From: Candidatus Calditenuis fumarioli
Lineage (GTDB): Archaea; Thermoproteota; Nitrososphaeria_A; Caldarchaeales; Calditenuaceae
NCBI GenBank assembly: GCA_030059665.1
Contig: JANVYR010000002.1
Coordinates: 257,441-321,440 of the forward strand
Direction: 5' to 3'
DNA length: 64,000 bases
Part shown: one piece after another, positions 884 to 61,311 of the stretch
How the letters are laid out: each line of letters begins with the position of its first letter
Position numbering within the stretch: position 1 is the first letter of the stretch
The notes under the pieces: generated by a model
Databases searched by the model: none
What the model saw: the letters and a program-made list of their open reading frames with translations, nothing else
What the model was told of the DNA's origin: nothing
Translations under genes and position numbers: made by a program

Positions 884-2116
884 TCACTCGCCGAACATCT
901 CGACCCTTCCCGTGAGGTCCATAAGCGTGTTCATCAGGTCCAGGCCCCTGATCCTTCCGAGGCCGCCTCGGGCGCAGCTCACCTCATCGAACCTGACCAC
1001 CTCGTCCCTCCTCACGCCCTCGCCCCATATCAGCAGCGGGACCGGGTCACCGTGATGGCGTCCGTCGACGGAGCTCGTGGTGTGGTCTCCCGTGACGCAG
1101 ACGATCACGTCCCCCAGCTGGTCGATCCTGGCCCTCAGCTCCTTATCTATCCGCTCGATGAAGGCCGCCTTGGCCGATGGGTTCCGGTCGTGGGAGGCCG
1201 TGTCGGTGCCCTTGATGTGGAGGAAGACCAGGTCGTACGTCTTCAGCGACTCGAGGGCCGCGTTGAACTTCGCGTTCAGGTCCGTGTTCAGGGTCCCCGT
1301 CGCGGTCGGAACTATCCTGACGTCCATACCGGCGGCCTTGCAGACTCCCCTGTAGAGCGCGCCGCCTGCGATGACCACGCAACTCACGCCGTACCTCTCC
1401 CTCAATGAGGGAAGGCGAGGCATCTTGCCCGCACCGCGGGGAAGTATAGCGTTCGCGGGCCTAAGCCCCTTCCTGACGCGCTCCCGGTTGAGCGGGTGGG
1501 ACTCGAGGACCTCCCTCGCCTTGCGCAGGAACCTCTCCAGCTCCCTAGCGGTCCGCTCGGCCCCCGGCGACCTCGGTCTCGGCATCTCCGCCTTGACCCC
1601 CTCCATGTGCGGGTCGACGTCGGTGACCTCGTCCGATACCCCATCGCCCCTCATCACCAGGACGCCCCTGTGCTCGACGGTGGTGAGGAAGTCGAAGGCG
1701 AACTCCGAGTCGAACGCCGCGGCCATCTCCCTTATCGCCTCGCCCAGCGCCCTCGCCTCCTCCGTGGAGATCCTTCCGGCCCTCCTGTCGATGACGGTCC
1801 AGTCGTCGCCGACGGTGGCGAAGTTCACGCGGAACGCCACATCGCCGGGCCTCAGGTCCATCCCTGCGCCGAGCGCCTCGAGCGGCCCCCTCCCCGTGTA
1901 GAACTTGTAGGGGTCGTAACCGAGTATCGAGAGGTGTCCCGTGTCGCTCCCCACCGGAACTCCCGGAGCCACGGGATCCATGATGCCCGTGACGCCCTCC
2001 GCAGCCAGCTCGTCGAGCCCCGGCTTGTTGGCGCGCTGAAGCGGCGTCATCCCGTTCAGGGACCTGGAGGGCCTGTCGCCGAGCCCGTCGAGGAGGACGA
2101 TGAGGATTTTGCTCAT
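884..2116 (-). CDS. apgM: 2,3-bisphosphoglycerate-independent phosphoglycerate mutase, archaeal ApgM type
   Basis: MSKILIVLLDGLGD N-terminus, VTGDHTT metal-site motif, about 410 aa; start taken at internal Met of ORF 884..2134. Confidence 0.85.
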   Translation of the reverse strand: MSKILIVLLDGLGDRPSRSLNGMTPLQRANKPGLDELAAEGVTGIMDPVAPGVPVGSDTGHLSILGYDPYKFYTGRGPLEALGAGMDLRPGDVAFRVNFATVGDDWTVIDRRAGRISTEEARALGEAIREMAAAFDSEFAFDFLTTVEHRGVLVMRGDGVSDEVTDVDPHMEGVKAEMPRPRSPGAERTARELERFLRKAREVLESHPLNRERVRKGLRPANAILPRGAGKMPRLPSLRERYGVSCVVIAGGALYRGVCKAAGMDVRIVPTATGTLNTDLNAKFNAALESLKTYDLVFLHIKGTDTASHDRNPSAKAAFIERIDKELRARIDQLGDVIVCVTGDHTTSSVDGRHHGDPVPLLIWGEGVRRDEVVRFDEVSCARGGLGRIRGLDLMNTLMDLTGRVEMFGE

Positions 2117-2335
2117 GTGCTGAGAGTTGCGCACCCGAATTTAGCCTTCGTCCACCACCAAGCGACCTATAATAGCGATTCCGGACGATGGGGAGTGCAA
2201 CACATTTTAGCGACCATTGACGAACTAATTTGGCCAATGACATCGGTCACCTCGTCGTCAACGGCCGACCTGCGCGTGACAAAGGGAGGAGATAGCGTGA
2301 GCAGCGGCTTGAGCCACACGACGCTTTTGTCCACG

Positions 2336-2572
2336 ATGGTTACGACGCAATTCGATGTGACGTTGAGCACCGCATTCGTGAAGTTCGATCCAGTCGCGCG
2401 GTCACTCTACGTGTACCTGCAGCCGCTAGGCAGAAGGGCAGCCAGATCGATAGCCGCCGAAGGGACCACCGTGGTCCTCGATCTCGACGAGGAAGGGGCC
2501 CCGCTGGGGATCGAAGTCCTGCTGGACGACGAGCAGGCCGCCGCGTTCACGAAGGAGAGGAGACGTCCTTAG
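2336..2572 (+). CDS. DUF2283-like small protein (antitoxin-like)
   Basis: SLYVYLQ...VVLDLDEEGAPLGIEVL matches DUF2283 signature (alYIrl ... DyDenG.lVGIEIL); occupies 3' end of an otherwise antisense ORF 1496..2572; alternative start ATG 2237. Confidence 0.5.
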   Translation: MVTTQFDVTLSTAFVKFDPVARSLYVYLQPLGRRAARSIAAEGTTVVLDLDEEGAPLGIEVLLDDEQAAAFTKERRRP

Positions 2573-2858
2573 GGTACACCGTCACTAAGGTGAGCGAGCA
2601 ACCGGAACTCTTGTCCACAATGATCCAGATTTGACGACGCGAATCACCGGTCACACGTGAACTCACATCGATAGCTATTTTGTAGCGAAATTCTTTGACA
2701 GTTGGTTCAAACTTTCCCTCGGACCATAATTTCTCCACAAGTCTTACAAATTCGCTCATCTCTAACCCCATATGTTGCTCGATTCCCCTTTCCCTAAATC
2801 TGTCCATAAAATGATTGGATATTCTGCGAACTTTGCAGCTCTGTAGCGATTCTTTCAT
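2547..2858 (-). CDS. DUF4258-like protein (toxin-like)
   Basis: HFMDRFRERGI motif and C-terminal ...LTLVTVYP typical of DUF4258; low-GC (about 42%) islet. Confidence 0.5.
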   Translation of the reverse strand: MKESLQSCKVRRISNHFMDRFRERGIEQHMGLEMSEFVRLVEKLWSEGKFEPTVKEFRYKIAIDVSSRVTGDSRRQIWIIVDKSSGCSLTLVTVYPKDVSSPS

Positions 2859-2860
2859 AC

Positions 2861-3304
2861 CTAATCAGCCAGCTTCACGCTCAATCTCGTACTGTACCTA
2901 ATGTGATATATGGGTGACCCCATCTCATCTTTGTATTCGAGTGTTCTGCTAATAATATCTGGGTAAGCTTCCAACTCTATCAAATACTTCCGTCCATCCT
3001 CACAATCGTAATATACGCTATCGATACCTGGGGTCGATTCCTTTATGGGGATAATAGCCCATATGTCAGGGTTAAACCAGAAATTAGTACCTGTCGGTCT
3101 TGGTTTGTCTTTCACCACCTCCTTTAACTCTGGAGGCGTGATAACTGTCACGACGATCTGGTTTTGAGTCATGAAGCTGGGTCCAGTGGGATATTTAGGA
3201 CCGGTTTCAATCACGTTAACAATCACTGGCCTTATAAGAACAATCGTTCCGTCCTCCAAGTAAGCGTAACCGTACTCTGAACGCGCTACCTTGACCCTGA
3301 TCAT
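2861..3304 (-). CDS. Hypothetical protein, low-GC islet
   Basis: 147-aa ORF immediately upstream (same strand) of DUF4258 gene; AT-rich codon usage unlike flanking genes; no recognisable motif. Confidence 0.4.
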   Translation of the reverse strand: MIRVKVARSEYGYAYLEDGTIVLIRPVIVNVIETGPKYPTGPSFMTQNQIVVTVITPPELKEVVKDKPRPTGTNFWFNPDIWAIIPIKESTPGIDSVYYDCEDGRKYLIELEAYPDIISRTLEYKDEMGSPIYHIRYSTRLSVKLAD

Positions 3305-7165: not shown

Positions 7166-7224
7166 CCTCCGGACCACCTGACCTGAACGTAATAAAAGTG
7201 ATGGTCTGTAGCTTGGTCCTCGTA

Positions 7225-8465
7225 CTTTCAACTCTCTTCTCGAGATTCATCGCTTACGAGGCGGGGTCCTGGACCTGCCCCTACTGCTTTCAACTCTCTT
7301 CGCGAGATTCGAGCGATGACGTGGGGGTAGAATGGAGCGATAACGTGACTTTCAACTCTCTTCGCGAGATTCGGAAGGCGAATCATAGATGAGGTGAAGA
7401 AGGGCAACATCACTTTCAACATTCTTCGCGAGATTCTTCATAAGCTCATCAGCATAGTCAGTCAGAACGTCTTTCTTTCAACTCTCTTCGCGAGATTCGT
7501 GTCCGACAGCAGCGTTCCGAGACCCGCTAACCCGCTTTCAACTCTCTTCGCGAGATTCGAGGCGCCTCGTCTCGCGCGACGAGATCGAGCGGCTCAAGGC
7601 TTTCAACTCTCTTCGCGAGATTCTCGAGCTGATACAAAAAGAACGCGATAGCGAGGATAACCGCGCTTTCAACTCTCTTCGCGAGATTCTGGTGGCATCG
7701 ATTACGAACACCAATTCAACTTATTCAACTTTCAACTCTCTTCGCGAGATTCGCGTGAAGCGGAGGGCCCTCGCCCGCCGGGGGCGGATGACGTGCTTTC
7801 AACTCTCTTCGCGAGATTCAGCATGCACATGGATGTGCACAAATATCATTTTATTAACACTTTCAACTCTCTTCGCGAGATTCCAGGAAGCGCCGCGTGC
7901 CCTCGTCCAGCTCCTCCCCCGGCTTTCAACTCTCTTCGCGAGATTCTTTTGGTCACGATGGACGGTTTGTCGACCGTTGGGGTTGCTTTCAACTCTCTTC
8001 GCGAGATTCGACCAGGAGGTCAAGGAGGTCTTGCGGTTCGGAGGCGCTTTCAACTCTCTTCGCGAGATTCTCCCAAAGGCTCCAACGGAGAGGTGGGAGT
8101 GAGGATCATGTACTTTCAACTCTCTTCGCGAGATTCGGGCAAATGGTCAATCACGATCGAGGGGGGATACCCATCTTTCAACTCTCTTCGCGAGATTCCT
8201 CAATATAAATTTGGGTCGAATGGGGAGCTACTCAATCCGGAAGCTTTCAACTCTCTTCGCGAGATTCCCAAATTCCTTAAGGGAGAAAAGGTTCGCCTAT
8301 TCCACCTTTCAACTCTCTTCGCGAGATTCCCGCTCGGCTCCCGGCGACGGGAGCACGATAAAACAGACGACACTTTCAACTCTCTTCGCGAGATTCGCGA
8401 GAGAGCTTGGCGGTCGGCGCTACCATATATCCTTTCAACTCTCTTCGCGAGATTCCGACCCCAAT
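7225..8465 (-). CRISPR. CRISPR array 1, 20 repeats of 24 bp (transcribed-strand repeat GAATCTCGCGAAGAGAGTTGAAAG), spacers 35-48 bp
   Basis: Repeat starts read at 7225(degenerate),7297,7359,7423(variant),7485,7545,7610,7676,7739,7806,7870,7933,7996,8057,8123,8185,8254,8316,8383,8442; leader at high-coordinate end; GTTGAAAG 3' handle fixes minus-strand orientation. Confidence 0.95.
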
Positions 8466-8655
8466 TTCCGGGAATCTCGCCTTAATTTTAGGATATTTTC
8501 AGCTCAACCTCCGCCTGCCCCCGTTTTTGCAAGTGGGTATATAAAGAGCAGACGGACCTACTTCATTACAGTTAAGTATTCCTGTAAAAGCTAATTATGC
8601 AGAACAAATGATTTCCGCGCGCTGAGGGCCGTCTTGAGAAGGCACGCAGGGCCAC
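8466..8655 (-). promoter_or_regulatory. CRISPR leader 1 with TATA box (minus-strand TTTATATA about 85 nt upstream of first repeat)
   Basis: About 190 bp, 92% identical to the sequence following array 2; contains gggtatataaagagcag on + strand. Confidence 0.6.
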
Positions 8656-19437: not shown

Positions 19438-19514
19438 CCATTCAGAATCCATTAAACTTTCTTTGCTGGGTCCTCGGTCTGAACATCACCGCTATTATGG
19501 ACGCATTCGGTTTT

Positions 19515-20424
19515 CTTTCAACTCTCTTCGCGAGATTCCGGGGTGATGATACGGCCCGATGGGAACCCCGGCCAGTTCTGCTTTCAACTCTCTTCGCGAG
19601 ATTCGGGGGTGGTTGGCTCTGACCTCTCACGCGGCCGTTTATGACTTTCAACTCTCTTCGCGAGATTCGTTCGGGAAGGACGTCGTCGTTGCGATCTGCG
19701 AGTTCCATCCTTTCAACTCTCTTCGCGAGATTCAGGGTTCGGATTCGTTGAAGGCGCGCCGGAGCTGTTTGCTTTCAACTCTCTTCGCGAGATTCTTCGC
19801 GAAGGAGCTGGTAGCCTATTGGGTGTCCGAGAAGCTTTCAACTCTCTTCGCGAGATTCGCGGGACCTAGCGATAATAGGAGGCGCGCTGGTGGTCTTTCA
19901 ACTCTCTTCGCGAGATTCTTGGGAAGTGGGCAACTGGGTGTTCGGCTCGTTCGTGAGGGAGCTTTCAACTCTCTTCGCGAGATTCAATAAACAGGTTGCA
20001 GGATCTGTCGGCTCTATATGAGGCTTTCAACTCTCTTCGCGAGATTCTATTGCTCGGGAAATGCTGACGTCTGAGGAGATTGAACTTTCAACTCTCTTCG
20101 CGAGATTCATGTCTCTCGTGAGGGACGTTCTGAGCGGGAAGGTCAACTTTCAACTCTCTTCGCGAGATTCGAGCTTTTGGCTGCCGGTTATGCCGCTGTC
20201 GGCTATGAGCCTTTCAACTCTCTTCGCGAGATTCAGTCCATGGTGCCCCACCATGGATAGGCGGACTCCCTTACTTTCAACTCTCTTCGCGAGATTCTGC
20301 GTTGGGAGGTGAGGAAGCATCCGGAAGCTGACGCTACTTTCAACTCTCTTCGCGAGATTCGAGATACGCGGAGGCCGCCGAGATGCTCCAGGAAAAGATT
20401 CTTTCAACTCTCTTCGCGAGATTC
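19515..20424 (-). CRISPR. CRISPR array 2, 15 repeats of the same 24-bp repeat, spacers 36-43 bp
   Basis: Repeat starts at 19515,19581,19645,19710,19772,19835,19895,19962,20024,20085,20147,20211,20274,20337,20401; leader at high-coordinate end. Confidence 0.95.
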
Positions 20425-20615
20425 CGACCCCAATTTCCGGAAATCTCGCCTTAATTTTAGGATATTTTCAGCTCACCTCCGCCTGCCCACGTTTTTGCAA
20501 GTGGGTATATAAAGAGCAGGCGGACCTGCTTCATCGCAGTTAAGCATTCCTATAAAAGCTAATTATGCAGAACAAATGATTTCCGCGCGCTGAGGGCCGT
20601 CTTGAGGGGGCATGC
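20425..20615 (-). promoter_or_regulatory. CRISPR leader 2 with TATA box
   Basis: Near-duplicate of leader 1 (gggtatataaagagcag, gctaattatgcagaacaaatgatttccgcgcgctgagggccgtcttga). Confidence 0.6.
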
Positions 20616-22844: not shown

Positions 22845-23644
22845 CGGGCTTGGCCTCCGTCGGGCCCCTCGTCAGGGCTCGGGTGCTGGGCGCGGTCATC
22901 AGGGCGCTGAGGGAGTCCCCGGAGCTCGACCCCTCGAGGATCTCGGAGCTCTCTGGCGTGGCGCGGGAGGTCGTTAGGGAGCTTCTGGAGGTCTGGAGCG
23001 GCGGGACTGGCCGGCTCGACCAGACGAGGGTCATAGAGCTGGCGGCGGAGGCGCTCGAGAGGTCAGGCGGATCTGTCGAGGTGCTGAGGGCCCTCGGATG
23101 GTCGCTCTTCGAGGACCTGATAGGAGCGCTGCTGGAGAGGATGGGGCTCGAAACGCTGAGGGACGTGAGGGTGAAGGTGGGGAGGAGGTGGTGCCAGATC
23201 GACGTGGTGGCGCTGAGGGGAGGCGACGTCTACGCACTGGAGTGCAAGCACTGGATGAGGAGCGTCACGTCCTCCCTGATGGCCTCGATAGCTTCCTCCC
23301 ATCTGAGGCGCGTTGAGCTGCTCGAGGAGGGCCTCAGGTCGTCCCTCGGTGAGGGAGACGTGACCGTCCGGGTGGTTCCGGTGGCGGTGGCGCTGTACGT
23401 TCCACCCTCGACCGGCGAGGTCCTCTTCGTCCCGGTCCGCGCGCTGGCGAGCTTCCTCTCCGAGCACCCCGCAGCTCTCCCTTCTCCCCCCGTCAGGAGG
23501 TTGAAGTTAGGCAGGAGGCCCGACGCGTCCACCTTCACAAGGCCTCCGTTCAGGGCATCGAGGGAAGCGACAAGGCTCGACGCAGGGTTGACGAGGCTCG
23601 AGGACCACGCTGCTCAGCAGGGCCCGATGACCTCCAGGAGGTGA
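22841..23644 (+). CDS. Mrr-like restriction-endonuclease (PD-(D/E)xK) domain protein with N-terminal wHTH-like region
   Basis: GRRWCQIDVVALRGGDVYALECKHW matches Mrr_cat core (D...E.K); start overlaps cofE stop (GTGA). Confidence 0.5.
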   Translation: MTGLASVGPLVRARVLGAVIRALRESPELDPSRISELSGVAREVVRELLEVWSGGTGRLDQTRVIELAAEALERSGGSVEVLRALGWSLFEDLIGALLERMGLETLRDVRVKVGRRWCQIDVVALRGGDVYALECKHWMRSVTSSLMASIASSHLRRVELLEEGLRSSLGEGDVTVRVVPVAVALYVPPSTGEVLFVPVRALASFLSEHPAALPSPPVRRLKLGRRPDASTFTRPPFRASREATRLDAGLTRLEDHAAQQGPMTSRR

Positions 23645-23865
23645 CCGAGACCGATCGAGGGGATCCTCGACCTCCACGCCTCCCACTCGGCCTCGAAGTC
23701 GGGTGAGACCCTGGGCCTCCGGACGACGTCGTAGTAGTCGTACGGTTTGATGTCCAGCACAGAAGAGCCGGGCCAGGCGTCGAGCCAGAGGACCTCCAGC
23801 CTCGGCGGCTCCACCCTCGACAGCTCCACCACGCTCACCGCGATGGGGTTCGGCCTGGGAGGGTG
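23614..23865 (-). pseudogene. tsaA: tsaA (YaeB/TrmO-family) C-terminal fragment, 5'-truncated
   Basis: RPNPIAVSVVEL and LDAWPGSSVLDIKPY match the conserved RPNPIG and LDGTPvLDIKPY motifs from the C-terminal half of TsaA; the N-terminal 80-90 aa are missing and replaced by the tRNA-like fragment. Confidence 0.55.
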
Positions 23866-23883
23866 GCGCGAAGTTGATAGGGA

Positions 23884-23916
23884 GAACCGGAGGTCCCGGG
23901 TTCGAGTCCCGGCGGG
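23884..23916 (+). other. Orphan tRNA 3'-half-like fragment (T-arm ccggg-ttcgagt-cccgg plus acceptor 3' strand cgggccc and discriminator g)
   Basis: Canonical T-loop and acceptor 3' strand but no complementary 5' acceptor strand (gggcccg) or D/anticodon arms within 300 nt upstream. Confidence 0.5.
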
Positions 23917-23999
23917 CCCGCGAATATAATAGCTTTCCAATTATGAACGATGATTGGGCCGTAAGCATGAAAACAGAAAAGGAAAGAAAGGGGAGGGGT

Positions 24000-24935
24000 T
24001 TACGTCGTCAGCGAGTTATTAGGAAGAAGCCCTCTCCTCTTCAAGTATTCCTCGAGTCTCTTCCTCTTCCGCTCGATCGTGAAACCGACTTTCTCGTAGA
24101 ACGTCAGATTTGACTTCATTCTCACGCTGACATAGTAGGCGTCTTTTCTCGCTCTATACACTTTATCCGTCTTCTTCGGGTCTCTAAACGGTCTTCCTGC
24201 TCGGTGATGTAGTATCGGCTTCTCCGAAGTCGTCTCTATCCCGATCTTTTTCAGCAGATATATCACGTACTCCAACATCTTATAGTTGGTGTTAACCACC
24301 CCAATTTCACCATCTTTATGAGCATATCCCTCACTGTCAAAGAACCCCCGAAGGAACATTGCTATACATCTCTCGCAGTGCTCAACGTACGGTCTGATCC
24401 TCTCGATGTCTATGGGTTTCTTGAGCAGCTCGTAGAGTGTTCTGGACTGAACTTCGACGACCCATAAACTGTATTTATTTTGCCTTGGTATCGGAGGTTC
24501 CCTTCCCAGAACCTTAGCTAATCTCCTGCCAAATTCTTCGGCGAATTCCTTGTCCTTGACCGTCAATCCGACAAAGAATTTGTCATATCTAGGCGCCGAA
24601 ATACTCATCTTATAGACAGTACCGTCTCCAACTATTGCGCCAGCGATGTAAGCCAGATCTTCTGAAGGTTTCAGGAATTCTAATGTCGGTATTCTGATTC
24701 CGTTATAGGGAGAGTGTTTCCTATTTTTCCACCCGCTGAGAGTTGACTTGCGGATAGTAACGTTATATCTTCTCTTTATCTCCTTGATTATTTTGTTATA
24801 GCTCAATCCCTGTTTCCGGAGTTCAAGGAAGTCCTCGTGGATCCTTATCCTCAGTTCTCCCGGAAGGATAGTTCTTCTGCGCTTCCGTTTCAACTGACTG
24901 TGTGCGGAGGCTTCCGCGCTCATGACATCACCCAT
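24000..24935 (-). CDS. Free-standing LAGLIDADG homing endonuclease with N-terminal HTH-like region
   Basis: LAYIAGAIVGDGTV and FLRGFFDSEGY double LAGLIDADG motifs; GC about 45% versus more than 60% in flanks; the GC-rich 5' extension of ORF 24000..25172 is probably not coding. Confidence 0.7.
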   Translation of the reverse strand: MGDVMSAEASAHSQLKRKRRRTILPGELRIRIHEDFLELRKQGLSYNKIIKEIKRRYNVTIRKSTLSGWKNRKHSPYNGIRIPTLEFLKPSEDLAYIAGAIVGDGTVYKMSISAPRYDKFFVGLTVKDKEFAEEFGRRLAKVLGREPPIPRQNKYSLWVVEVQSRTLYELLKKPIDIERIRPYVEHCERCIAMFLRGFFDSEGYAHKDGEIGVVNTNYKMLEYVIYLLKKIGIETTSEKPILHHRAGRPFRDPKKTDKVYRARKDAYYVSVRMKSNLTFYEKVGFTIERKRKRLEEYLKRRGLLPNNSLTT

Positions 24936-26734
24936 GTGAATGGCAGAGGCAACGATTTCGGTTCCCTCAGCATGACGTCTATCCTTCTCAGCGTGTTCTC
25001 TATGGCCTTTTCTCATATCATCACCCTCCCCCTCTGGCTCTGAGAGACGGGCAGGACGAAGATCCTGCCCGACCCCTGCATCGGCTGAGTCAGGGCTTAC
25101 GGCCGGGGCCAGCCGACCCCTTCTCCCGGGGTCCGGGCCGGGATCGGAGGGACCGATCATATCCCTCCCCATGATGTTGGGGAGGCCGGCCTTCTAGGCC
25201 GGGACATCCCTCCGACCGGCCCTCCCCGGGGAAGGGTTGCCACAGAGGGGGTGAGGCGCCGTCCGACGTCAGCCTGATCCGGTGAGGATGGTCAGCTGGT
25301 GATCGCGATGGGGGTGAGGGCTTCTCCGCGCCCGACACCCGACCCCTTCCTCACCCGGTGGCCATCCGGAAGAGGAAGGTACTGGGCGGACGCGCATCGA
25401 TCCGGTCAGACTCGCCTATCCTCCTGAGCGCCGTCACCCGATGGGAGGGACCCCTGCACGCCGCGCCCTTCGCCCGGGTATGCCTGTCCCTCCTTTGGAC
25501 CCGGAGGCCGGCCTTGCCCGGGGATCACCGGATGACGGCGTTCAGGAGGACTTCTGGGATCATCGTGTAATCATCAGGTGATCGTCCGGTCCGGGACCTT
25601 TGCCGACCCCGTGTATACAAATGTGCACAAATGCATACATCCGTTCCTACCCCCTCTCCCCCTCCCTTTCGGGAAGAGGTGGGGGTCCTCAGAATGCCCC
25701 CTGGGGGTCTCAGAGCACCCCCCGGGGGGCCTCTCCCCTCCCTCCCCCTACCCCTGGTTGCCCCCTTTGGGACTAGGGCGGGGGATCGGTGAACCCCCAG
25801 TACCCCCTCCCTTCGACGGAGGATAGGGGATCCCTGAGGGCCATGAGGGGAGCCCCCTTCGCGCATGGTGGGGTCTCCTCGACGGGGTTCTCGGCGGTCC
25901 CGGTATCCGTGCCCAGAGTTCCCACGGCCCCCCGGACGGGGTTTTGAGACGGCCGTGGTACCCCGGGCCATCTACCGGCGGACGGGCTTGGGAACCCTGA
26001 AGGGCCATCGCCCCGGGCTTGTCCCCTCATCGCCCGTTCCCCCCTCCATCCGGAGGGGGTTATGGCGGTTAGCCCTGCCCCCCGGACGGGAGGCGGTGCC
26101 CTCACAGCGGACGCTCAGGCCCTCACATCCCCTGCTGGAAGCGCGGGGGATGCGGGACACCCGCCGCCGCCGTCTCTACGTCCGGGGCCAGAGGTGCTGG
26201 GAGGCCCCGGCGCACCAACCCCTCCCCCAGGATCCCCAGCACCCATGAGTTTGGTGGGTGCTCCGGGATTTGATCCCGGGGTGAGAGGAATAGTTCTCCC
26301 TCGACTCGGCTGACTTCCTCTTCCTCCGCCCTTCGTCTGTCTTCCGGGAGGGCTTAGGGCGATCGCCCTTCCCGGGGAGCCCCTTCTGCCCCTCCCATCC
26401 GGGACTCCCCCGCCGCCCCGGCATCCTGGGGCTACGGGCGGGCTCCCACTTCCCGCCGCTCCCTTCAGGGAGGCGAGGAGACGCTCTCGTCGTCCCCTCG
26501 CCGGGGGCAGCTCCCTTCACCGGAGGAGGTCCAGGGCCGCAACCCCTTTCGGGGCCTCGGCGCCGCCCCGCCGGCTTTCGTCGGCGGCCCCAACTCCTCC
26601 TCCAGCGCCGCCACCTTTCCGTGGCGACCGGGCCCCTCACGTGGCGGGCCTCGGGACCCGTGAGGAGGACCTTGAACCCTCTGTAAAGTGTAGTTCTGTC
26701 GACTTTACTTAAGCATTAGCATTCAACTGGACGT

Positions 26735-27108
26735 GATAGTGTCCGGATAAGCATCTCTACCCACCTCCGTTCCTCATCACATGATAGTAGATCGCGAAGA
26801 GGTTTAGGAATTGGTCTCATCGACAGCTATGCACCTCCTATATCTCGGCTCTGAGGCCACTGTTACCATAGAAGACACCTTCCTGGCAAGATAATGTACT
26901 GTTGATTCGCTTATAGGCTCAATAGCTATGCTGAGTACCTTGGCGACCCTCCTGCAGCTGCCGTGGAACACGTACTCTAGGACAGCTAAGACCTTGACCT
27001 CACGGCTTTTTTGTTGCGCTCGAGACGGCTCGAGATCAGGGCTATGACGTCCACGAAGACGACCATCGAAGACAGGCCTTTAAATGTATTCACTTATCCG
27101 GACACTAC
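26735..27108. mobile_element. Candidate MITE-like element bounded by 15-17 bp inverted repeats (tagtgtccggataag / cttatccggacacta)
   Basis: Inverted repeat read directly at 26735-26752 and 27092-27108, 340 bp apart, in an ORF-free AT-rich stretch. Confidence 0.35.
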
Positions 27109-27870
27109 CGAGATAGTTTAGAAGGCATTGATATACAACCTGTTGCTTAACGCGGCATGAACTTAGGAAACTGAGGCACGAGCTGGAGAAGAGGTAATAG
27201 AACTAGAGGAATTATGCCACAAGGCATGAGGCTGCAGAGGTTCGTCAAGGATTTCGCTCGATCCTGCCGTTTGGGATGCGGCGGGCGCCCGGCTTTGATG
27301 GCCCCATGATGGATTGATTCCGAGGAGAATTGGAGACAATATTAACTCAGGCAGGAGAGTCCTACTACGACGACGTTTACCTCATGGCGAGCACGGACGA
27401 GGAGGGATGGGATGAGGGAAGTAAGGGCCCTTGAGGAGAGGGTTTCCGCAGTCACAGGGTCCACCGGGAATCGCCAGCCACACCCAAAGAGCAGGAAACG
27501 GTCGGGTCTAATGACAAATCTTAGAAGTGTTTACCGTGTGGGGAAGGACGAGGGACTTCAGGACGTGGAAGGCGCAGATGATGGCTTATCTCGTCCGTCA
27601 ACCGCCCTCAAAGGAGCTGGACTCCCTGATAGACCAGCTTGAGAAGCTCCGTAGCAGGTGGTTATCGAGTCTTTAGCCGGCATCAGCAAGCATGAGAGCG
27701 CATCAGGCATTAAGATTCCACCAGAATTGTTACCATCGCAAGAGTAGGTCGAGGCGTGGTCTCGGGAGAGGGAGTGAGGGATGTCGTATTAGCAGTTTAT
27801 TAGGAGCTATGGCGTCGAGGTTTTCAGAATAAACAAGATCAATATCCCGCGCTGAACCCTATCCGGCGGC

Positions 27871-28386
27871 ATGGTGGGGCAGGTCACGGAGCTGATCAGG
27901 ACCAAGCTGGACTGGAGGAGCTTCTCGGAGAGGCCGGTGAGCAGGGAGGACGTGATCGCGATCCTCGACGCCGCGAGGTGGGCGGGCAGCGGCAAGAACA
28001 CCCAGCACTGGCGCTTCGTCCTGATAGAGGACAGAGAAGAGCTGAGGTGGCTGGCGGAGCACACGACGACGGGCCGGTGGCTCGAGGGCGCGGCCTTCGC
28101 GGTGATCGTCACCACAGACTCCAACATACCCTACCACATGCTCGACGCCGGCAGGGCGATAGCGAACATGCAGCTGGAGGCCTGGAGCAGGGGCATAACC
28201 TCCTGCATAACAACGGGCTACGACCAGTCGGTGATCAGGCAGAGGTACGGCATACCCGAGAAGAGGTCCGTCGACGCGATCGTCGGCTTCGGGTACCCCG
28301 ACAGGCCCCTGAAGGGGAAGAAGACGAGGAGGCCGCTGAGCGAGCTGGTCTACGTCGGACGGTACGGCAACCCGCTGAAGGTCTGA
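27871..28386 (+). CDS. Nitroreductase family protein
   Basis: SFSERPVSREDVIAILDAARWAGSGKNTQHWRFVLI and C-terminal nitroreductase fold motifs. Confidence 0.85.
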   Translation: MVGQVTELIRTKLDWRSFSERPVSREDVIAILDAARWAGSGKNTQHWRFVLIEDREELRWLAEHTTTGRWLEGAAFAVIVTTDSNIPYHMLDAGRAIANMQLEAWSRGITSCITTGYDQSVIRQRYGIPEKRSVDAIVGFGYPDRPLKGKKTRRPLSELVYVGRYGNPLKV

Positions 28387-28391
28387 CGGCC

Positions 28392-29969
28392 TTGACGTCC
28401 GAGCGGACGGTGCTGGCCGAGCTCGTCGAGGAGGTCCTCGCCAGGAGGCCGGCGACCAAGGAGGAGCTGAACAGGATCAAGCTGGAGCTCGCCAAGAGGC
28501 TCAGGCTCGAGAGGGTGCCATCCGACGCGGAGCTGGCCGGCGCGCTGCTCGAGAAAGGCGCTGACCCGGAGCTGGTGAGGGTTGTGAGGAAGAAGCCAGT
28601 CAAGACGAGGTCCGGCGTAACGGTGATCACGGTCGTCCTGCCGATCTTCAGGTGCCCCCACGGCAGATGCGTTTACTGCCCCGGAGGCGGAAGCACCGGG
28701 ATACCACAGAGCTACACCGGCAGGGAGGCCTGGGTCTCGGCAGCGAGGGAGATGGGTTACGAGGTGGAGGCGCAGGTCAGGACGCAGGTCGATCGGCTCA
28801 GGAGGATGGGTCACGAGGTCGACAAGGTCGAGCTGATCTTCATAGGAGGGACCTTCACCGCGGAGCCCCTCGAGCTGCAGCGTGACCGTATCAGGAGGGC
28901 GCTCTCCGCGCTTCACGGGCCCTCGGCGACCCTCGAGGAGGCCCTTGAGAAAGCCGAGCGCTCCCTTCCCTCCGTCTCGGGGATAACCGTCGAGACGAAG
29001 CCCGACTGGGCGAAGGCTCCCGTGGCGGACGAGCTGCTCCGGATGGGCATCACGAGGGTGGAGCTGGGCGTTCAGGCGCTCGACGACGTGGTCTATCGGA
29101 TCGTCAACAGGGGCCACACGGTCAGGGACGTGGCCGAGGCCACGGCCGACCTAAGGCAGAGGGCCTTCAAGGTCTGCTACCACCTGATGCCGGGCCTTCC
29201 GGGGAGCGACCCGCACCGCGACCGGGAGTGGTTCAGGCGCCTCTTCGAGGACCCGAGCTTCAGGCCCGACATGCTGAAGGTCTACCCGACGATGGTGATC
29301 CCCGGGACTCCGCTCTTCGAGATGTGGCGGCGCGGGCTCTACGAGCCCTACCCTCTGGAGGAGATGGTGGAGCTGCTGGTGGACTGGCTCAGCATCGTCC
29401 CTCCGTACGTGAGGGTGATGCGGATCAGGCGGGAGATACCGAGCGAAGCCGTCGCCGCCGGTGCCTGGCCCGGAAACCTGAGGGAGCTGGTGGAGGGGGA
29501 GATGAGGAGGAGGGGCCTCAGGTGCAGGTGCGTCAGGTGCCGCGAGATCGGGAACCCCGAGGTCCTCAGGCGGGTCGAGCCTTCCCGCCTGAACTTCGAG
29601 GTGAGGGAGCTCCGGTACGAGGCCTCCGGCGGTACCGAGGTCTTCATCTCCTACGAGGACCCGGAGAGCGACGTCCTCGCAGGGCTTCTCAGGCTGAGGT
29701 TGCAGCGTGAACCCGTCGAGGGGCTCACGGAGGAGGCGGCGCTGGTGAGGGAGCTGCACGTCTACGGTCCGATGGTGCCGGTGGGGAGGGATCACGTCGG
29801 GGGATGGCAGCACAGGGGGATAGGCGCGCTGCTGCTGAGGAGGGCCGAGGAGATAGCCGCATCGGAGGGCTACAGGAGGATCCTGGTCATCAGCGGCGTC
29901 GGCGTCAGGAGGTACTACTACAGGCTCGGATACGTGAGGGCTCTGCCGTACGTCGCCAAGCGGCTCTGA
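28392..29969 (+). CDS. elp3: Elongator complex protein 3 homologue (radical-SAM + GNAT tRNA acetyltransferase)
   Basis: CPHGRCVYCPGG radical-SAM cluster, C-terminal QHRGIGALLL GNAT motif; the 5' part of ORF 27978..29969 overlaps the nitroreductase and is not coding; start TTG 28392 or GTG 28410. Confidence 0.9.
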   Translation: MTSERTVLAELVEEVLARRPATKEELNRIKLELAKRLRLERVPSDAELAGALLEKGADPELVRVVRKKPVKTRSGVTVITVVLPIFRCPHGRCVYCPGGGSTGIPQSYTGREAWVSAAREMGYEVEAQVRTQVDRLRRMGHEVDKVELIFIGGTFTAEPLELQRDRIRRALSALHGPSATLEEALEKAERSLPSVSGITVETKPDWAKAPVADELLRMGITRVELGVQALDDVVYRIVNRGHTVRDVAEATADLRQRAFKVCYHLMPGLPGSDPHRDREWFRRLFEDPSFRPDMLKVYPTMVIPGTPLFEMWRRGLYEPYPLEEMVELLVDWLSIVPPYVRVMRIRREIPSEAVAAGAWPGNLRELVEGEMRRRGLRCRCVRCREIGNPEVLRRVEPSRLNFEVRELRYEASGGTEVFISYEDPESDVLAGLLRLRLQREPVEGLTEEAALVRELHVYGPMVPVGRDHVGGWQHRGIGALLLRRAEEIAASEGYRRILVISGVGVRRYYYRLGYVRALPYVAKRL

Positions 29970-54720: not shown

Positions 54721-54956
54721 CACCGGGGCACGCCCACCACCCCACCAGTCGACGTCGGCCGCGGTTATTTGGCTTTACCCGTCCTGGATGTGGTCCAGTT
54801 AACTCCCACGAACCCTTTGCTGGTCCGGCCCGGGTCAGATGCACCGCATTCGATGCATGGTCCGCTATCGCAACGAACGATCAACACGTCTGCACATCAC
54901 GAAACATGATGTTATACCATCACCATATTATGGAAACTGCCAGAAGGTGAAATACA

Positions 54957-55030
54957 TGGGCCCGGTGGGATTCGAACCCACGACCTCCCGGTTATCAGCC
55001 GGGCGCTCCGCCAGGCTGAGCTACGGGCCC
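54957..55030 (-). tRNA. tRNA-Ile (anticodon GAU), no intron, CCA not encoded
   Basis: Reverse complement folds as GGGCCCG-TAGCTCAGCCTGGCGGAGCG-CCCGG CTGATAA CCGGG-AGGTC-GTGGGTTCGAATCCCAC-CGGGCCC-A. Confidence 0.9.
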
Positions 55031-55194
55031 AACCAAGGTTACGCCAATCGCGTCGTTAATTTAGCTTACTAGGGAAGTCGGCGTTACTGAAGCGATGGAT
55101 GCTAATTGACCCACCGTACACACCCGATAGCTGGGCTCGACGGACTCCGTAATGACCGAGAGCCTTTTGTCCTCCGGAGGATGAGAGCATCAGG

Positions 55195-57872: not shown

Positions 57873-57994
57873 CGGGGTCCGGTCATAGGGCAGGGGCCAC
57901 ACCCGGACTCATTCCGAACCCGGAAGTTAAGCCCTGCCCGCACGGCGAGTAGTGGGGTGGGCGACCACCCGCGAAAGCCGTGTGCTGGACCCCC
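57873..57994 (+). rRNA. rrf: 5S ribosomal RNA
   Basis: CCCGGACTCATTCCGAACCCGGAAGTTAAGCC loop C/helix III signature; terminal helix GGGGTCCGG/CTGGACCCC; followed by CCCCTTTT terminator; AT-rich box (attaaat) about 25 nt upstream. Confidence 0.9.
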
Positions 57995-58653
57995 TTTTCG
58001 CGCTCATTTTTGCGCCGACAGGGCGCGACCTTTCCGACCCCCGAGTTCGAGGTCCGAGTTCGAGGACAGATCGCGCTATCTGCGAGCTAAAGATAAAAAA
58101 CAAAAAATAGATTTTGGGGAGAGGTTGCGTTCGCTTCTCCCGTCTTCTGCGCCATCCCGCTTCACCGACGGTTGCCCCGCTTCGCCAGCCACCTCTTGCG
58201 AGCCCTTCCAGACCTGTCCCTCAGGCAGGGCACACCCGGATCCCTGTCGCCCGGTGGGGTCCTGGCCGGGCGAGCCTGGTCCTACGGCACATCATCGGAG
58301 GAAGGTTCATTAGCGCCCTCTCCCACATCTCCCTGGCCCTGCCCGGGCTCCGGGGAGGGTTCTGGGGAAGGGATGGAGAGAAAGGTACCCACTAACACGC
58401 CATGCAATCCCCAGCAACGCAGTAATGGTATAGGTTCTGCGCAACGAGCATGAGGTGAAAAATTATTGTGATGATACGATAGTAGACTAGTTCGGGAACA
58501 AGAATAGACCTCTCTTAGAAAGTCCTCTAAACACTACCATTTACCTTCTCTCCTGCATGCATGAGAGTGAGTCTCGTTCACCGTAACCGTCCTATGTTGG
58601 AAGGGATAAATATACCCCTAGAGATGCTATGAACAGCGGGTCAGTGGTCTGCA

Positions 58654-59349
58654 ATGATTCCAGTAATAAAGGTATTGGTAAATAATGTTGTCATAGGTAA
58701 TGTCATCGCTGATGACTTCTTTAACAAATATGGAAATTGCGATGGGCATAATATCGTCGGTTTAGTAGCTGAAGCTTACCTCGTGAAAAAGCTGAGAAGC
58801 ACGGGCTATGAAGTGATGCTAGTGTTGAGTCACAATGTCGAAATAAGGAGCATTAAGCGACATGGTTTTTCTTACGATTGTGTAGGTGAGTATGGTGAAG
58901 TCTTGGAAAAGATGCCTGCTGAGTTAAAGGCTGTAGTCGATGAGATGTGCGAGAGAGGGGTTGATATCAGGATAGAGAATGATGGTGATGTGCCGGTGTA
59001 CCTAGAGGATAGAATGCTGTTTAAAACTAGTTTCAAAAGAACGCTCTTAAAAATCATAGCTGCGCACGGAGACAGATATCTCTCACCTCTAATAATATTT
59101 AATTCGGAATTCGAGCCTTTCCTGACGGCTCTTAGCTACAAATTGGTCCTCATGCTAGAATATGGGGCTAATATCCCCATAAAGAGATTACCTCTCAGCA
59201 GAGTTGAAAACCTTCTTGATGATATCGAGAGTATACTTGCGGAGAAAGGTCTTAAGCTTGAAAGTGATTACTGTGACGGTTTGAAAATCTCTAATGAGAG
59301 CGAGTTAATCGAAGACCTTCGTGGATTATGGAGAGTCTTTGAGGGATGA
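58654..59349 (+). CDS. Hypothetical protein on low-GC island
   Basis: 231-aa ORF, about 40% GC, no recognisable motifs. Confidence 0.4.
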   Translation: MIPVIKVLVNNVVIGNVIADDFFNKYGNCDGHNIVGLVAEAYLVKKLRSTGYEVMLVLSHNVEIRSIKRHGFSYDCVGEYGEVLEKMPAELKAVVDEMCERGVDIRIENDGDVPVYLEDRMLFKTSFKRTLLKIIAAHGDRYLSPLIIFNSEFEPFLTALSYKLVLMLEYGANIPIKRLPLSRVENLLDDIESILAEKGLKLESDYCDGLKISNESELIEDLRGLWRVFEG

Positions 59350-60309
59350 AGACCGTTTTCGAATAGGAGCGTGTCCCAGGAATTCCATTATGGTCTTCCT
59401 TATCCTTATCAGCATTTTACTGCGTGTGCTACCAGACTTGCTATTATCACTGATGGCACTGTCAACTAGGTATTACACCCCTTTTCCAAATATGTTCAGG
59501 AGTGAGTTGTAAGTCAGAGCTATAGCACTTACTAGCTCTTCTATGCTCTTCAACGTCTTACCGTTAAAGTTATTGTAGAATTATCTTAGTTGCGTCCTTA
59601 CAACTTCCTGAACCACCTCCCCATTCTGTATCTGTTGCCGAGGTTCTCGTTTACTTATTCTAATCCCATCTCATTCAAAGCCCATGGATACCACGCCCCT
59701 TTATCAATTACTGCCAACGGCCTGTTCTCGCAAATCTCGAGGGTTGTCATCAGAACCTCAGAGCGTTCAGGATCGATTTACCTCTAGAGGCGCAAATAGC
59801 CAAAATCGCGTCGGAATCCACGTCTATTGCAGACCATATGAAGCATCTGTGTCCGCTCGAGCACATCACGGTCACGTCAGCGGCCATAATTCTCCTGGAC
59901 TTCCTTAAAGGATTGAACAGCATTGATGTCCTGTGAACCCTTATCCTGACTCTCCCATAGCTGCATTGACCAGGGAATATCCCTGAGAAATGCCGCTCAG
60001 GCTTAGCCTTGCTATGTATAGGGTGACTGCGCAGACCTTATCGAAGGGATGGTAGTTATAGAACCTAACAGGGAAGACAACCTCTCGATAAGACAATCGA
60101 ATAAATGCACGAAGGATTTAGGATGAACAACACCATAAGCGGTTCTTTGAAAGGATCAAGCAAAAGTTGACAGTACTTATGTCAGGAATTTTTAACTCAT
60201 TTTCAATCTTGAAATATTGAACGGAGTAGCGAGGACAGTTTCCGGATCGATCACGAACGTGACGATAAGAAGAATAAGAATTATAATCCTGAAGAGAGTG
60301 GGATGAACG

Positions 60310-61311
60310 ATGAGGGTAGATCTCGGATTCTCTCTCCCCGTAGGGCAGTTGAGGGTCGGAGAACTCGTGCATGCAGCAAGGATTGCGGAATCAGCGGGAA
60401 TTAGCTCTATCTGGCTGCACGAAAACCCAGCTTACGGGGACAGTCTGATAGCATGCCACGCTATTCTATCGTCCACAACCTCAATCAAGGTTTGCACGGG
60501 AGCAGTAAGCGTGGTGACTAGACACCCTGTTATGCTGGCAGCAAGTGCAGCGACTTTACAAAACGAGAGCAACGGTCGGTTCGTTCTGGGTGTGTCCTTG
60601 GGTGGATTCCCATGGCTACCCCTCATCGGATATTCAATCCATCCCTTGTCTGAGTCCAAACCGCTGGTGAGGATTTTCGAAGCAATTTCTATTATAAGAG
60701 ATCTGCATGAGAACGGAATAACAAATCGCAAAGGGCGATTCTACAACGTGAATGGTTTCAGAATAGTAGTTAAGCCATATGTGAAGGTACCAATTTACGT
60801 AGCAAGCATGGGGCCAAGGATTTTGAGGAAGGCGCCAATGATCGCAGATGGTGTGATAACATCGCCAGGCGTAATGACCGTTAAATCCGTTGAGGAGTTG
60901 CTGAAAGCCGTCAAGAGCGGTGAGGCTATGTGCAATAGGGCCATCGACAAGGCGGCCTATGTGCTCAGCTCGGTCGCTAAAGACCGCGCTGAAGCGTATA
61001 AATCGGTTAAGAGGGACCCATTCTTCATTTATCAGCTTTCGGAGGTCGTCTCAGAGGAATCGCTTTTGGAGTGTGGTGTGGGGGTTGAGAGGCTGCCAGA
61101 TATAAGGAATGCGTGGAGGAACAGGGACCTGTTGAGGGCCTCTGAACTGATTACGGACGAGATGGTCCATCATTTGACGGCCACGGGGAAGCCTGAGGAC
61201 GTCATGAACCGGCTTGAGGAGTATTGGTCTACCGGTCACGATAGGCTGATCGCGGCAGCGGTAGGGGACTGGAGGTCGCTCATAGATGTCATCGGCACGC
61301 TTAACCAGTGA
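60310..61311 (+). CDS. LLM-class flavin/F420-dependent oxidoreductase (luciferase-like)
   Basis: TIM-barrel luciferase-like pattern (SIWLHENP, GVSLGGFPW, VASMGPRIL). Confidence 0.8.
   Translation: MRVDLGFSLPVGQLRVGELVHAARIAESAGISSIWLHENPAYGDSLIACHAILSSTTSIKVCTGAVSVVTRHPVMLAASAATLQNESNGRFVLGVSLGGFPWLPLIGYSIHPLSESKPLVRIFEAISIIRDLHENGITNRKGRFYNVNGFRIVVKPYVKVPIYVASMGPRILRKAPMIADGVITSPGVMTVKSVEELLKAVKSGEAMCNRAIDKAAYVLSSVAKDRAEAYKSVKRDPFFIYQLSEVVSEESLLECGVGVERLPDIRNAWRNRDLLRASELITDEMVHHLTATGKPEDVMNRLEEYWSTGHDRLIAAAVGDWRSLIDVIGTLNQ

Follow-up and report, generated by a model that had tools for sequence, protein, structure and literature searches.

Which product, if any, is encoded by more than 1.6 kb of GC-rich DNA in which no credible gene can be found? 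The question is raised by a 64,000-nucleotide stretch of the Candidatus Calditenuis fumarioli genome (contig JANVYR010000002.1; the whole stretch is called the window below, and coordinates are counted from its first nucleotide), in which such a tract lies directly next to a gene for a LAGLIDADG homing endonuclease. An earlier reading of the letters (the original prediction) had placed the tract at 25000-26660, described its plus strand, and proposed either a structured RNA or DNA prone to form G-quadruplexes and i-motifs. Of all readings, the data best support a large structured RNA, encoded by the tract as the 5' leader of a homing-endonuclease cassette. We consider it about 60% probable that positions 25033-26680 of the minus strand specify a base-paired leader RNA of ~1.65 kb, which forms one transcription unit with the LAGLIDADG gene and acts mainly in cis. 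Both the limits and the strand are thereby revised: the feature spans about 26680 to 25033, running on into the open reading frame (ORF) at 25015, and the evidence favors the minus strand. Also missed at first were the putative transcription unit ending in a LAGLIDADG gene and its apparent nature as a multi-copy mobile cassette beside tRNA genes. A leader RNA of this kind appears to be previously undescribed.

The tract is non-coding and precedes a LAGLIDADG gene

Within 25030-26666 the longest ORF in any of the six frames is 154 amino acids (aa), and none of the ten pseudo-ORFs of at least 60 aa in the tract matched a Pfam family, in agreement with the first description of a region without real ORFs. 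ORFs in the leader are also rarely called by gene callers. Direct reading confirmed the C-tracts and G-runs described earlier, and Tandem Repeats Finder recovered the tandem hairpin near-repeats reported around 25680-25730 as a 21-nt unit in 2.5 copies (25680-25733). The AT-rich palindromic cluster noted in the middle of the tract is likewise real, with slightly adjusted limits (Table 1); the first two of its three 8-mers, TGTATACA and TGTGCACA, are perfect palindromes. The tract does not deserve the description "low-complexity", since it holds one short tandem array and the remainder is unique, hairpin-rich sequence.

GC content, offered initially as the hallmark of a stable RNA, is a less certain guide. 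At 69.7% GC, 25030-26666 is indeed the most GC-rich 1637-nt stretch of the window, but the runner-up reaches 69.2% and typical coding kilobases have 63-67% (about 65%), so "extremely GC-rich, above genome average" is true only in the narrow sense of rank. The tract looks striking mainly because both flanks are low in GC (46% in the LAGLIDADG gene, 51% in a stretch derived from an insertion sequence, IS). As an argument for RNA, composition is weak in a 65%-GC genome; it does hold in a related locus on a JGI metagenome contig, L090, where the leader has 60-72% GC within a flank of ~40%. The heuristic "high-GC means RNA" can thus reach the right answer for partly wrong reasons.

The tract might also be a decayed or frameshifted protein gene, or a functionless remnant carried with a mobile element. 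The locus is clearly rearranged, with a truncated TrmO-like gene, an orphan tRNA half and a miniature inverted-repeat transposable element (MITE)-like remnant around it, and in some assemblies gene callers extended ORFs into the tract. However, besides the lack of a Pfam match in any frame, mismatches show no codon periodicity (15:15:15 by phase against the related locus L019, 54:62:62 against L090), and indels of 1, 2, 4, 5, 7, 12, 14 and other lengths are not confined to multiples of three. A frameshifted gene is ruled out because of these phase-free mismatches, the indels of all lengths and the compensatory pairing against L090 described below. Conservation above that of the neighboring functional ORF, covariation and strong fold z-scores also speak against a remnant, which we hold to be the least probable explanation of all and largely refuted already. 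Neither outcome that the original prediction had named as fatal to an RNA, lack of conservation in relatives or a frameshifted conserved protein gene, was found, and the RNA reading survives. The tract 25030-26666 is non-coding, and it is neither low-complexity nor decayed DNA.

The tract lies immediately upstream of the LAGLIDADG ORF and on the same strand, and direct reading revealed neither a T-rich terminator nor an AT-rich promoter between the leader and the Shine-Dalgarno region or ORF. The open frame extends over 24000-25172 (minus strand, 390 aa), with the LAGLIDADG_3 match at residues 269-363 and a second LAGLIDADG motif, LAYIAGAIVGDG, visible upstream of the Pfam-matched one. Realistic starts are the ATG at 25015, preceded by GGAGGGUGAU, or the ATG at 24923 (MSAEAS...), which is common to the wider family. 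We found 318 homologues, mostly from Aigarchaeota; those with a named source are labelled Nitrososphaerota, Caldarchaeum or Calditenuis. The host is Aigarchaeota-like, and the neighboring F420-ligase protein is identical in several NCBI metagenome-assembled genomes (MAGs). Differences among paralogs by codon position are 0.19/0.15/0.33, and the ORF is therefore under purifying selection.

Table 1. Features of the leader-endonuclease unit and its immediate surroundings (window coordinates).
Feature	Position	Strand	Description
IS6-family-derived MITE-like remnant	26733-27112	.	15-bp terminal inverted repeats TAGTGTCCGGATAAG; just upstream of the cassette
TATA-like element	26704-26713	-	TTAAGTAAAG
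Structured leader tract	26680->25033	-	~1.65 kb, hairpin-rich; continues into the ORF at 25015
Leader 5' domain	26010-26680	-	Three GAAA-capped hairpins and long-range helices; most conserved part across lineages
Variable hairpin region	25640-26009	-	Contains the 21-nt tandem hairpin units
AT-rich cluster, three 8-mers	25612-25639	.	TGTATACA-AA-TGTGCACA-AA-TGCATACA, 10-bp spacing
ORF-adjacent conserved module	25033-25597	-	Domain 1, middle domain, Y-shaped domain
Shine-Dalgarno region	25016-25027	-	AGAGGGGGAGGG, then UGAU
LAGLIDADG homing-endonuclease ORF	24000-25015	-	Pfam LAGLIDADG_3, E = 1.1e-17; N-terminal helix-turn-helix region
Conserved 3' untranslated tail	23935-23999	-	T-rich runs CCCCUCCCCUUUCUUUCCUUUUCUGUUUUC; nearly identical in the window, L007 and L009
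Orphan tRNA 3' half	23887-23920	+	From just after the anticodon loop to the acceptor end; antisense to the cassette
Truncated TrmO-like fragment	~23740-23885	-	Pfam TrmO_N, E = 1.8e-12, profile positions 65-111 of 116

The leader is more conserved than the endonuclease gene

The same MAGs hold further copies of the tract with its endonuclease gene (loci L007/L008, L009-L011 and L089). The ORF-adjacent module of ~550 nt (25597 to 25033) is 88-91% identical in five variants (the window, L007, L009, L019 and L089), compared with 77-78% for the ORF. From 26096 downward, about 85% of the alignment columns are identical between the window and L007. In L009 and L019 the variable region is replaced by an unrelated array of five loop-E-type hairpins. 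The 5'-most ~110 nt (26632-26526) are 75% identical to the L009 and L001 copies, compensatory changes included. The AT-rich cluster is identical in L007. L009, L019 and L090 lack it and carry another AT-rich linker, with GAUGAUUAC motifs, in its place. The cluster might serve as an internal promoter, as an operator bound by protein, or as a site of RNA self-pairing.

Locus L090 has the same layout as the window, namely TATA boxes, a leader of ~1.65 kb, an endonuclease gene and an antisense tRNA, the last intron-containing and ~45 nt downstream of the endonuclease gene. Its endonuclease is 48% identical to that of the window at the protein level and 54.5% at the nucleotide level. Its leader (1749-2383) is 72% identical to window positions 26648 to 26023 over 638-666 aligned nt, and the core of module domain 1 is 85% identical. 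Between these two loci the leader (72-85%) has thus changed more slowly than the ORF (54.5%); it is more conserved than the endonuclease gene to which it is attached.

Base-pairing is maintained and the minus strand is favored

The predicted structure is built from several domains. In the ORF-adjacent module, domain 1 (~25551-25412) has a long closing helix around an invariant core, CCCCGGGCAAGGCCGGCCUCC...GGCGCGGCGUGCAGGGGUCCC, and the Y-shaped domain (25222-25134), which comes after the middle domain, folds as a three-way junction. The 566 nt adjoining the ORF gave fold z-scores against shuffles of -6.7 (minus strand) and -6.1 (plus strand).

Covariation with homologous regions, suggested as a check in the original prediction, was found against L090. 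Alifold predicted 171 pairs for the 5' domains of the window and L090, of which 28 were changed on both sides and none was broken (covariation term -17.75). We also applied a non-circular test, in which the structure was predicted from the window alone by minimum free energy (MFE) and the changes in L090 were then scored, with partners slid by 1-2 columns as controls. This yielded 20 compensatory pair changes, against 1-4 in the slid controls. Other comparisons gave 12 compensatory pairs (5' segment, window against L009/L001), 3 compensatory and 7 consistent pairs (Alifold on the variable region of the window and L007), and 6 compensatory and 13 consistent pairs with none broken (L009 against L019). 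Reading the sequences, we found the outer closing helix of domain 1 rebuilt in L090 from different sequence, as 14 bp including 2 G-U pairs. Most of the structure comparisons take in two to five sequences. The compensatory changes, together with the phase-free mismatches against L090, argue for selection on base-pairing. The idea of a structured RNA therefore stands, carried by covariation, by conservation above that of the ORF and by the absence of codon periodicity; the strand and the GC argument first given for it were wrong and weak, respectively.

The endonuclease-sense strand folded better in all comparisons, by 25-43 kcal/mol. Sense and antisense values were -401.9 and -361.5 for the 5' domain of the window and -384.5 and -349.8 for that of L090 (both MFE), -316.5 and -273.8 for the variable region of L009/L019, -267.5 (minus) and -242.9 (plus) for the four-variant module in Alifold, and -250.4 and -218.3 for the variable region of the window and L007 in Alifold. 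GAAA/GUAA (GNRA) tetraloops and AGUA/GAA loop-E motifs are present only on the endonuclease-sense strand, which is also the purine-rich one. Overall, we assign the RNA to the minus strand.

The tract could alternatively act as DNA, whether as a recombination or homing region, as a stretch prone to G-quadruplexes (G4), i-motifs or R-loops downstream of a promoter, or as a protein-binding array. With a motif defined as at least four runs of at least three G (or C) and loops of 1-7 nt, five of the 15 G4 motifs in the window fall within 25000-26700, and four of these five are on the minus (non-template) strand. Quadruplexes or i-motifs would compete there with the predicted helices. Such motifs are enriched in the tract, but the predicted structures place most G-runs in helices with C-runs. 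Further hints of a DNA function are the 10-bp spacing of the palindromic 8-mers, which resembles that of sites for dimeric proteins, the breakpoints of strain rearrangements at the edge of the tract (~26669), and the fact that assembly contigs often end within or at the edge of the leader. Contig ends at this position are as expected of a repeat. The compensatory double substitutions, on the other hand, keep Watson-Crick pairs over hundreds of nucleotides, which is unexpected for G4 or a protein array, and both the G-U pairs and the one-strand folding advantage point to a single-stranded transcript. We regard a role as DNA as improbable; the G4/i-motif reading in particular is not needed for the data and is at best a by-product of hairpins made from G- and C-runs.

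A proposed transcription unit of leader and ORF

The proposed unit would consist, in order, of a TATA-like promoter, the leader, the Shine-Dalgarno region, the LAGLIDADG ORF and a T-rich terminator. The TATA-like element of the window is kept as GTTTAAGTAAAG in the strain variants L001/L003/L004, though the flank diverges from ~26669 outward. In L090, whose leader is flanked by an AT-rich region, the TATA boxes TTTATATA and ATTATATC stand just before the GC-rich start, and TATA boxes occupy the same relative position in L009 (TTATAT) and in L091 from C. subterraneum (CTTATATG). TATA-like elements are therefore present at the 5' edge of the leader in four lineages, those of the relatives being clearer than that of the window. 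We infer from the sequence that the element functions as a promoter and that transcription starts at ~26680. A scan for sigma-70 promoters and intrinsic terminators was set aside as inapplicable to archaea. Archaeal transcription terminates at oligo-T, and on this basis the T-rich tail downstream of the ORF is a likely terminator.

In most variants, the predicted pairing partner of the Shine-Dalgarno region is a CCUCACCCC-type element ~230 nt upstream (Alifold columns 406-415 with 654-661), and the unpaired probability of the region is 0.03-0.38 in all five module variants. As evidence of masking this predicted pairing is modest to weak, because G-runs readily find partners in a composition so rich in G- and C-runs.

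We propose a role mainly in cis, exerted by the leader on the mRNA that carries it. The ORF-adjacent module would enclose the ribosome-binding site in a long-range helix, and with the site masked, little of a potentially toxic nuclease would be translated. Further upstream, the large domains may serve as a stable 5' body at high temperature, and the repeated hairpins with invariant or palindromic loops could bind protein or other copies of the RNA. The leader might either stay on the mRNA or be processed to a separate stable RNA.

Structured leaders recur in different types

Structured, GC-elevated leaders precede other members of the endonuclease family as well, and a subset of the members has structured leaders unrelated to that of the window. 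Over the 300 nt preceding the ORF, fold z-scores are -3 to -11 in L031, L032, L033, L040, L047, L009, L090 and the window. The loop-E hairpins that occupy the variable region in L009 (9149-9482) and L019 (194-531) amount to ten units, five per locus, all with an invariant GAGUA/GAAA internal loop. All seven outer-helix pairs of the unit covary and 94% of the cells are paired, which is reached by none of 500 shuffles. The internal loop (GCGAGUAG / CGAAAGC) is identical to that of the loop-E arm in the 5S rRNA of the window's own genome, and the unit model (R1) also matches this arm at 57935-57988. From this identity, the hairpins could mimic the binding site of a 5S rRNA-binding protein. Model R1 detected no loop-E unit (AGUA/GAA) in the window's own tract.

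A second leader type (type B) was modelled and found in seven loci. The type-B model (R2) gave no significant match on the leader of the window, and deep homology between the types is unproven. The third type, in C. subterraneum and archaeon HR01, has repeated hairpins with CAUG or AUGCAU. An nhmmer search with a profile of the module found nothing in 65 LAGLIDADG loci of other genomes, and the module motifs had no matches in IMG/VR.

Does the RNA act in cis or in trans?

Several observations weigh against a leader whose task is to act on its own mRNA. At 1.65 kb it is far longer than masking of a ribosome-binding site requires, the TATA-like element of the window is a weak match, and most structure comparisons rest on the small numbers of sequences given above. 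As evidence on the strand, changes of the G-U and A-C types in helices common to both strands stand at only 7:3, which is weak. This leader type is also very narrowly distributed: a 22-mer that is invariant in the window, L007 and L009 had no match in 185,579 species-representative genomes or in IMG/VR, and five matches in JGI metagenomes. The leader is moreover separable from the gene. The locus L092 is the same locus as L090, with an L090-type gene and without the leader block, and many members of the endonuclease family lack a structured region upstream. The ORFs that follow the module in L019 are small and unrelated, again with a Shine-Dalgarno sequence and ATG ~30 nt beyond the module, and the first ~320 nt of the L009-type leader run, in L001-type strains, into a 548-aa ORF. 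The absence of the leader from L092 and from many family members argues against an obligatory role. Since leaders are present, absent or swapped among members of the family, long structured leaders are best described as recurrent but replaceable accessories.

The block that differs between L090 (187-3078) and L092 (1153-1163) measures 2.9 kb and holds an AT-rich 247-aa ORF, the promoter and the GC-rich leader. Short G-rich microhomology at the block junctions suggests that the L092 state arose by deletion.

The main rival to a cis-acting leader is a trans-acting product. A large RNA, such as a ribonucleoprotein scaffold, a self-assembling RNA or a ribozyme, would then be the real cargo of the cassette, perhaps cut off the mRNA, with the endonuclease as a module for mobility or maintenance. 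This would suit an RNA that is conserved much more than its ORF, has a length of ~1.65 kb in the window and L090 alike, combines a complex multi-domain architecture with covariation, and is found with different downstream genes. Each leader type also repeats hairpins with invariant loops (five loop-E units in L009 and L019, CAUG/AUGCAU in L091 and L031), and the palindromic GAUC apical loops of the L009 type and the palindromic 8-mers of the window could mediate RNA-RNA pairing. It is less easily reconciled with the lack of a terminator or recognizable processing site between leader and ORF, with a middle part that is freely swapped between paralogs, with the very narrow distribution, with the absence of a match to known ribozyme or large-RNA families, and with L092, in which the endonuclease gene is intact without the leader. 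We therefore treat a trans-acting RNA as a serious alternative, though clearly a less probable one.

A more far-reaching proposal, and in our opinion an unlikely one, is that the leader represents a novel class of structured archaeal RNA, very large in size and acting in partnership with a LAGLIDADG nuclease. Such an RNA might be an antitoxin-like or cofactor-like partner that restrains or directs the enzyme, or a self-assembling scaffold with a function beyond homing, and the RNA rather than the protein would be the conserved core of the tRNA-flanking mobile element in Aigarchaeota.

To our knowledge, archaea have so far yielded few large structured RNAs whose function is unknown, and homing-endonuclease genes joined to structured RNA elsewhere are introns. 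Here a covarying RNA of 1.65 kb is fused to free-standing LAGLIDADG genes that are set next to tRNA genes in a systematic manner, and of the two it is the protein that evolves faster. A functional RNA would offer a new handle on the control of selfish nucleases at high temperature, provide a new large RNA fold for structural study, and explain the assembly breaks at these loci.

Comparison with introns and other known RNAs

No Rfam 15 family reached its gathering threshold on the tract, GOLLD, ROOL, OLE, HEARO, RNase P, SRP and rRNA included. By E-value, the region 23000-28500 gave only chance-level matches (E<=10), and the relatives were negative (E<=1). The earlier statement that no known archaeal noncoding RNA matches thus holds even at this permissive level. 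Several individual candidates were rejected. ARAGORN called a tRNA-Ser at 25134-25222 (minus strand) with the anticodon at the odd position 28, a false positive to which the Rfam tRNA model gave no match at E<=10. A C/D-box small RNA (UGAUGA...CUGA near 25570) was dismissed since its boxes are not conserved in L009, and a ToxIN-like type III toxin-antitoxin system since the downstream protein is a LAGLIDADG DNA endonuclease and only 2.5 copies of one 21-nt unit are present.

LAGLIDADG genes are normally housed in introns, and LAGLIDADG proteins can be RNA maturases. For this reason the leader could be an intron RNA, degenerate or atypical (of group I, of group II or of the archaeal bulge-helix-bulge kind), with the endonuclease ORF at its 3' end, and a conserved structured RNA joined to a fast-evolving ORF is an intron-like pattern. 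Against this, Rfam intron models remained unmatched at E<=10, including Intron_gpI over 23000-28500 (and at E<=1 in the relatives), so that no group I core is recognizable by the Rfam model. The cassette has its own promoter-like element and no in-register host gene; it is bordered by a promoter-like AT-rich stretch and the MITE on one side and by the antisense tRNA half on the other, within intergenic and IS sequence, and no interrupted host RNA gene is evident around the unit. A group II intron was rejected because there is no Rfam match, neither a GUGYG start nor a domain V is visible, the ORF being LAGLIDADG and not reverse transcriptase; the 3' tail of the cassette likewise lacks a domain V-like hairpin. 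When the segments flanking the ORF, to which this test was confined, were co-folded for bulge-helix-bulge or long-range pairing, the duplex (-40.2) was no better than shuffled sequence (mean -44.5). An intron is accordingly very improbable, hardly more credible than a remnant.

Archaeal group I introns with LAGLIDADG_3 ORFs do occur in Aigarchaeota large-subunit rRNA, in a different arrangement (PMC6125680). They resemble the cassette in joining a conserved structured RNA to a faster-evolving LAGLIDADG ORF of the same family, and in being mobile and multi-copy. Unlike them, the cassette lacks a host gene and exons, has its own TATA-like promoter and shows no Rfam group I core. Its ORF lies downstream of the whole RNA and not in a peripheral loop, and the RNA is 3-5 times as long as the intron core.

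Four other kinds of RNA are worth comparing with the leader. The lariat-capping ribozyme GIR1 (RF01807), a eukaryotic RNA of ~190 nt, belongs to twin-ribozyme introns, where it precedes the ORF of the homing endonuclease I-DirI. Like the leader it is a structured RNA immediately 5' of a homing-endonuclease ORF, and it conditions the expression of that mRNA; unlike the leader it is nested in a group I intron, and the leader gave no RF01807 match; our data imply no catalytic activity. GOLLD and ROOL are large ornate RNAs of bacterial mobile elements, often near tRNA genes in prophages. They have in common with the leader the very large size, the multiple domains, the mobile DNA and the proximity to tRNA genes, and the repeated or palindromic loops could self-associate. 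The leader differs in its archaeal host, co-linear downstream ORF and extremely narrow distribution, and matches neither in sequence or structure. Hgc RNAs are high-GC noncoding RNAs that were found by composition in AT-rich hyperthermophiles. The same logic fits L090, whereas the contrast in the window genome is small and the leader has no homology to Hgc families. The Omega RNA of IscB (HEARO) and the RNA of ToxIN are structured or repetitive RNAs upstream of, and co-transcribed with, the nuclease gene of a mobile element. A conserved RNA encoded directly upstream of a mobile nuclease gene is what the cassette has in common with them, although a functional parallel is speculation only: a LAGLIDADG enzyme reads DNA through protein contacts, and neither a guide segment, nor processing repeats, nor an Rfam match was identified.

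A mobile cassette beside tRNA genes

In the window the TrmO-like gene is cut off where the orphan tRNA half begins (Table 1; the TrmO_N match lies inside an ORF at 23614-23940, and the coordinates of the fragment are approximate). Judging from the sequence, an inserted block appears to have its left junction here; the N-terminus that TrmO lacks was not found to the right of the insertion. A search of the window for an attachment site revealed neither a matching 5' half nor a full copy of the tRNA half, while paralogs and relatives have complete tRNA genes at the matching position. The window thus holds only the 3' half of a tRNA, abutting a truncated TrmO, which suggests that the block was copied in with a piece of its former tRNA neighbor.

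Tail-to-tail placement with a tRNA gene is very frequent in the family. In at least 22 of the 60 related loci scanned, a tRNA gene on the opposite strand lies roughly 25-300 nt from the 3' end of the endonuclease match, and the same holds beside L007, L009, L010, L012 and L090; many isotypes are represented overall. In L012 from C. subterraneum the endonuclease gene and the tRNA overlap by 18 nt, and several of the endonuclease-flanking tRNAs carry non-canonical introns. The LAGLIDADG_3 family is present in multiple copies in Aigarchaeota and related MAGs, with at least six copies in archaeon HR02. The unit appears to be a multi-copy selfish mobile cassette that sits tail-to-tail with tRNA genes in Aigarchaeota. 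The searchable literature yielded no account of leaders like these, nor of the way in which this endonuclease family flanks tRNA genes.

Neighboring features

In two stretches, the MITE-like remnant upstream of the cassette matches sequence that adjoins DDE_Tnp_IS240 genes in L010, at 93-97% identity. It is followed by ~750 nt without an ORF longer than 76 aa (27113-27870) and then by a nitroreductase gene. In L001/L003/L004, two large ORFs (1117/921 aa and 548 aa; L001 6468-12000) stand in place of the sequence that lies to the right of ~26669 in the window. These large ORFs matched neither Pfam nor PHROG, contain many N-x-S/T sites, and are preceded by a second 5' segment of the L009-type leader. 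Pfam and PHROG searches with the neighbor proteins in L009, L019 and L001 were uninformative.

Two CRISPR arrays, at 7224-8464 and 19514-20449, have the repeat CTTTCAACTCTCTTCGCGAGATTC in a total of 35 copies. They bracket ~11 kb, and their leader-side flanks (8429-8647 and 20398-20615) are 93-97% identical. CRISPR spacers gave no significant match to the tract or to loci L001-L023. A 12-nt string, ATGTGCACAAAT, is common to the AT-rich cluster and a spacer of the first array at ~7820-7858; it was treated as chance, which is probably its origin, though an operator-like motif common to local mobile elements could also lie behind it. The only matches at the Rfam gathering threshold in the window are the 5S rRNA at 57875-57993 (plus strand) and a tRNA-Ile (GAT) at 54956-55031 (minus strand), and islands of low GC content are located at 58000-61000 and 2000-3000.

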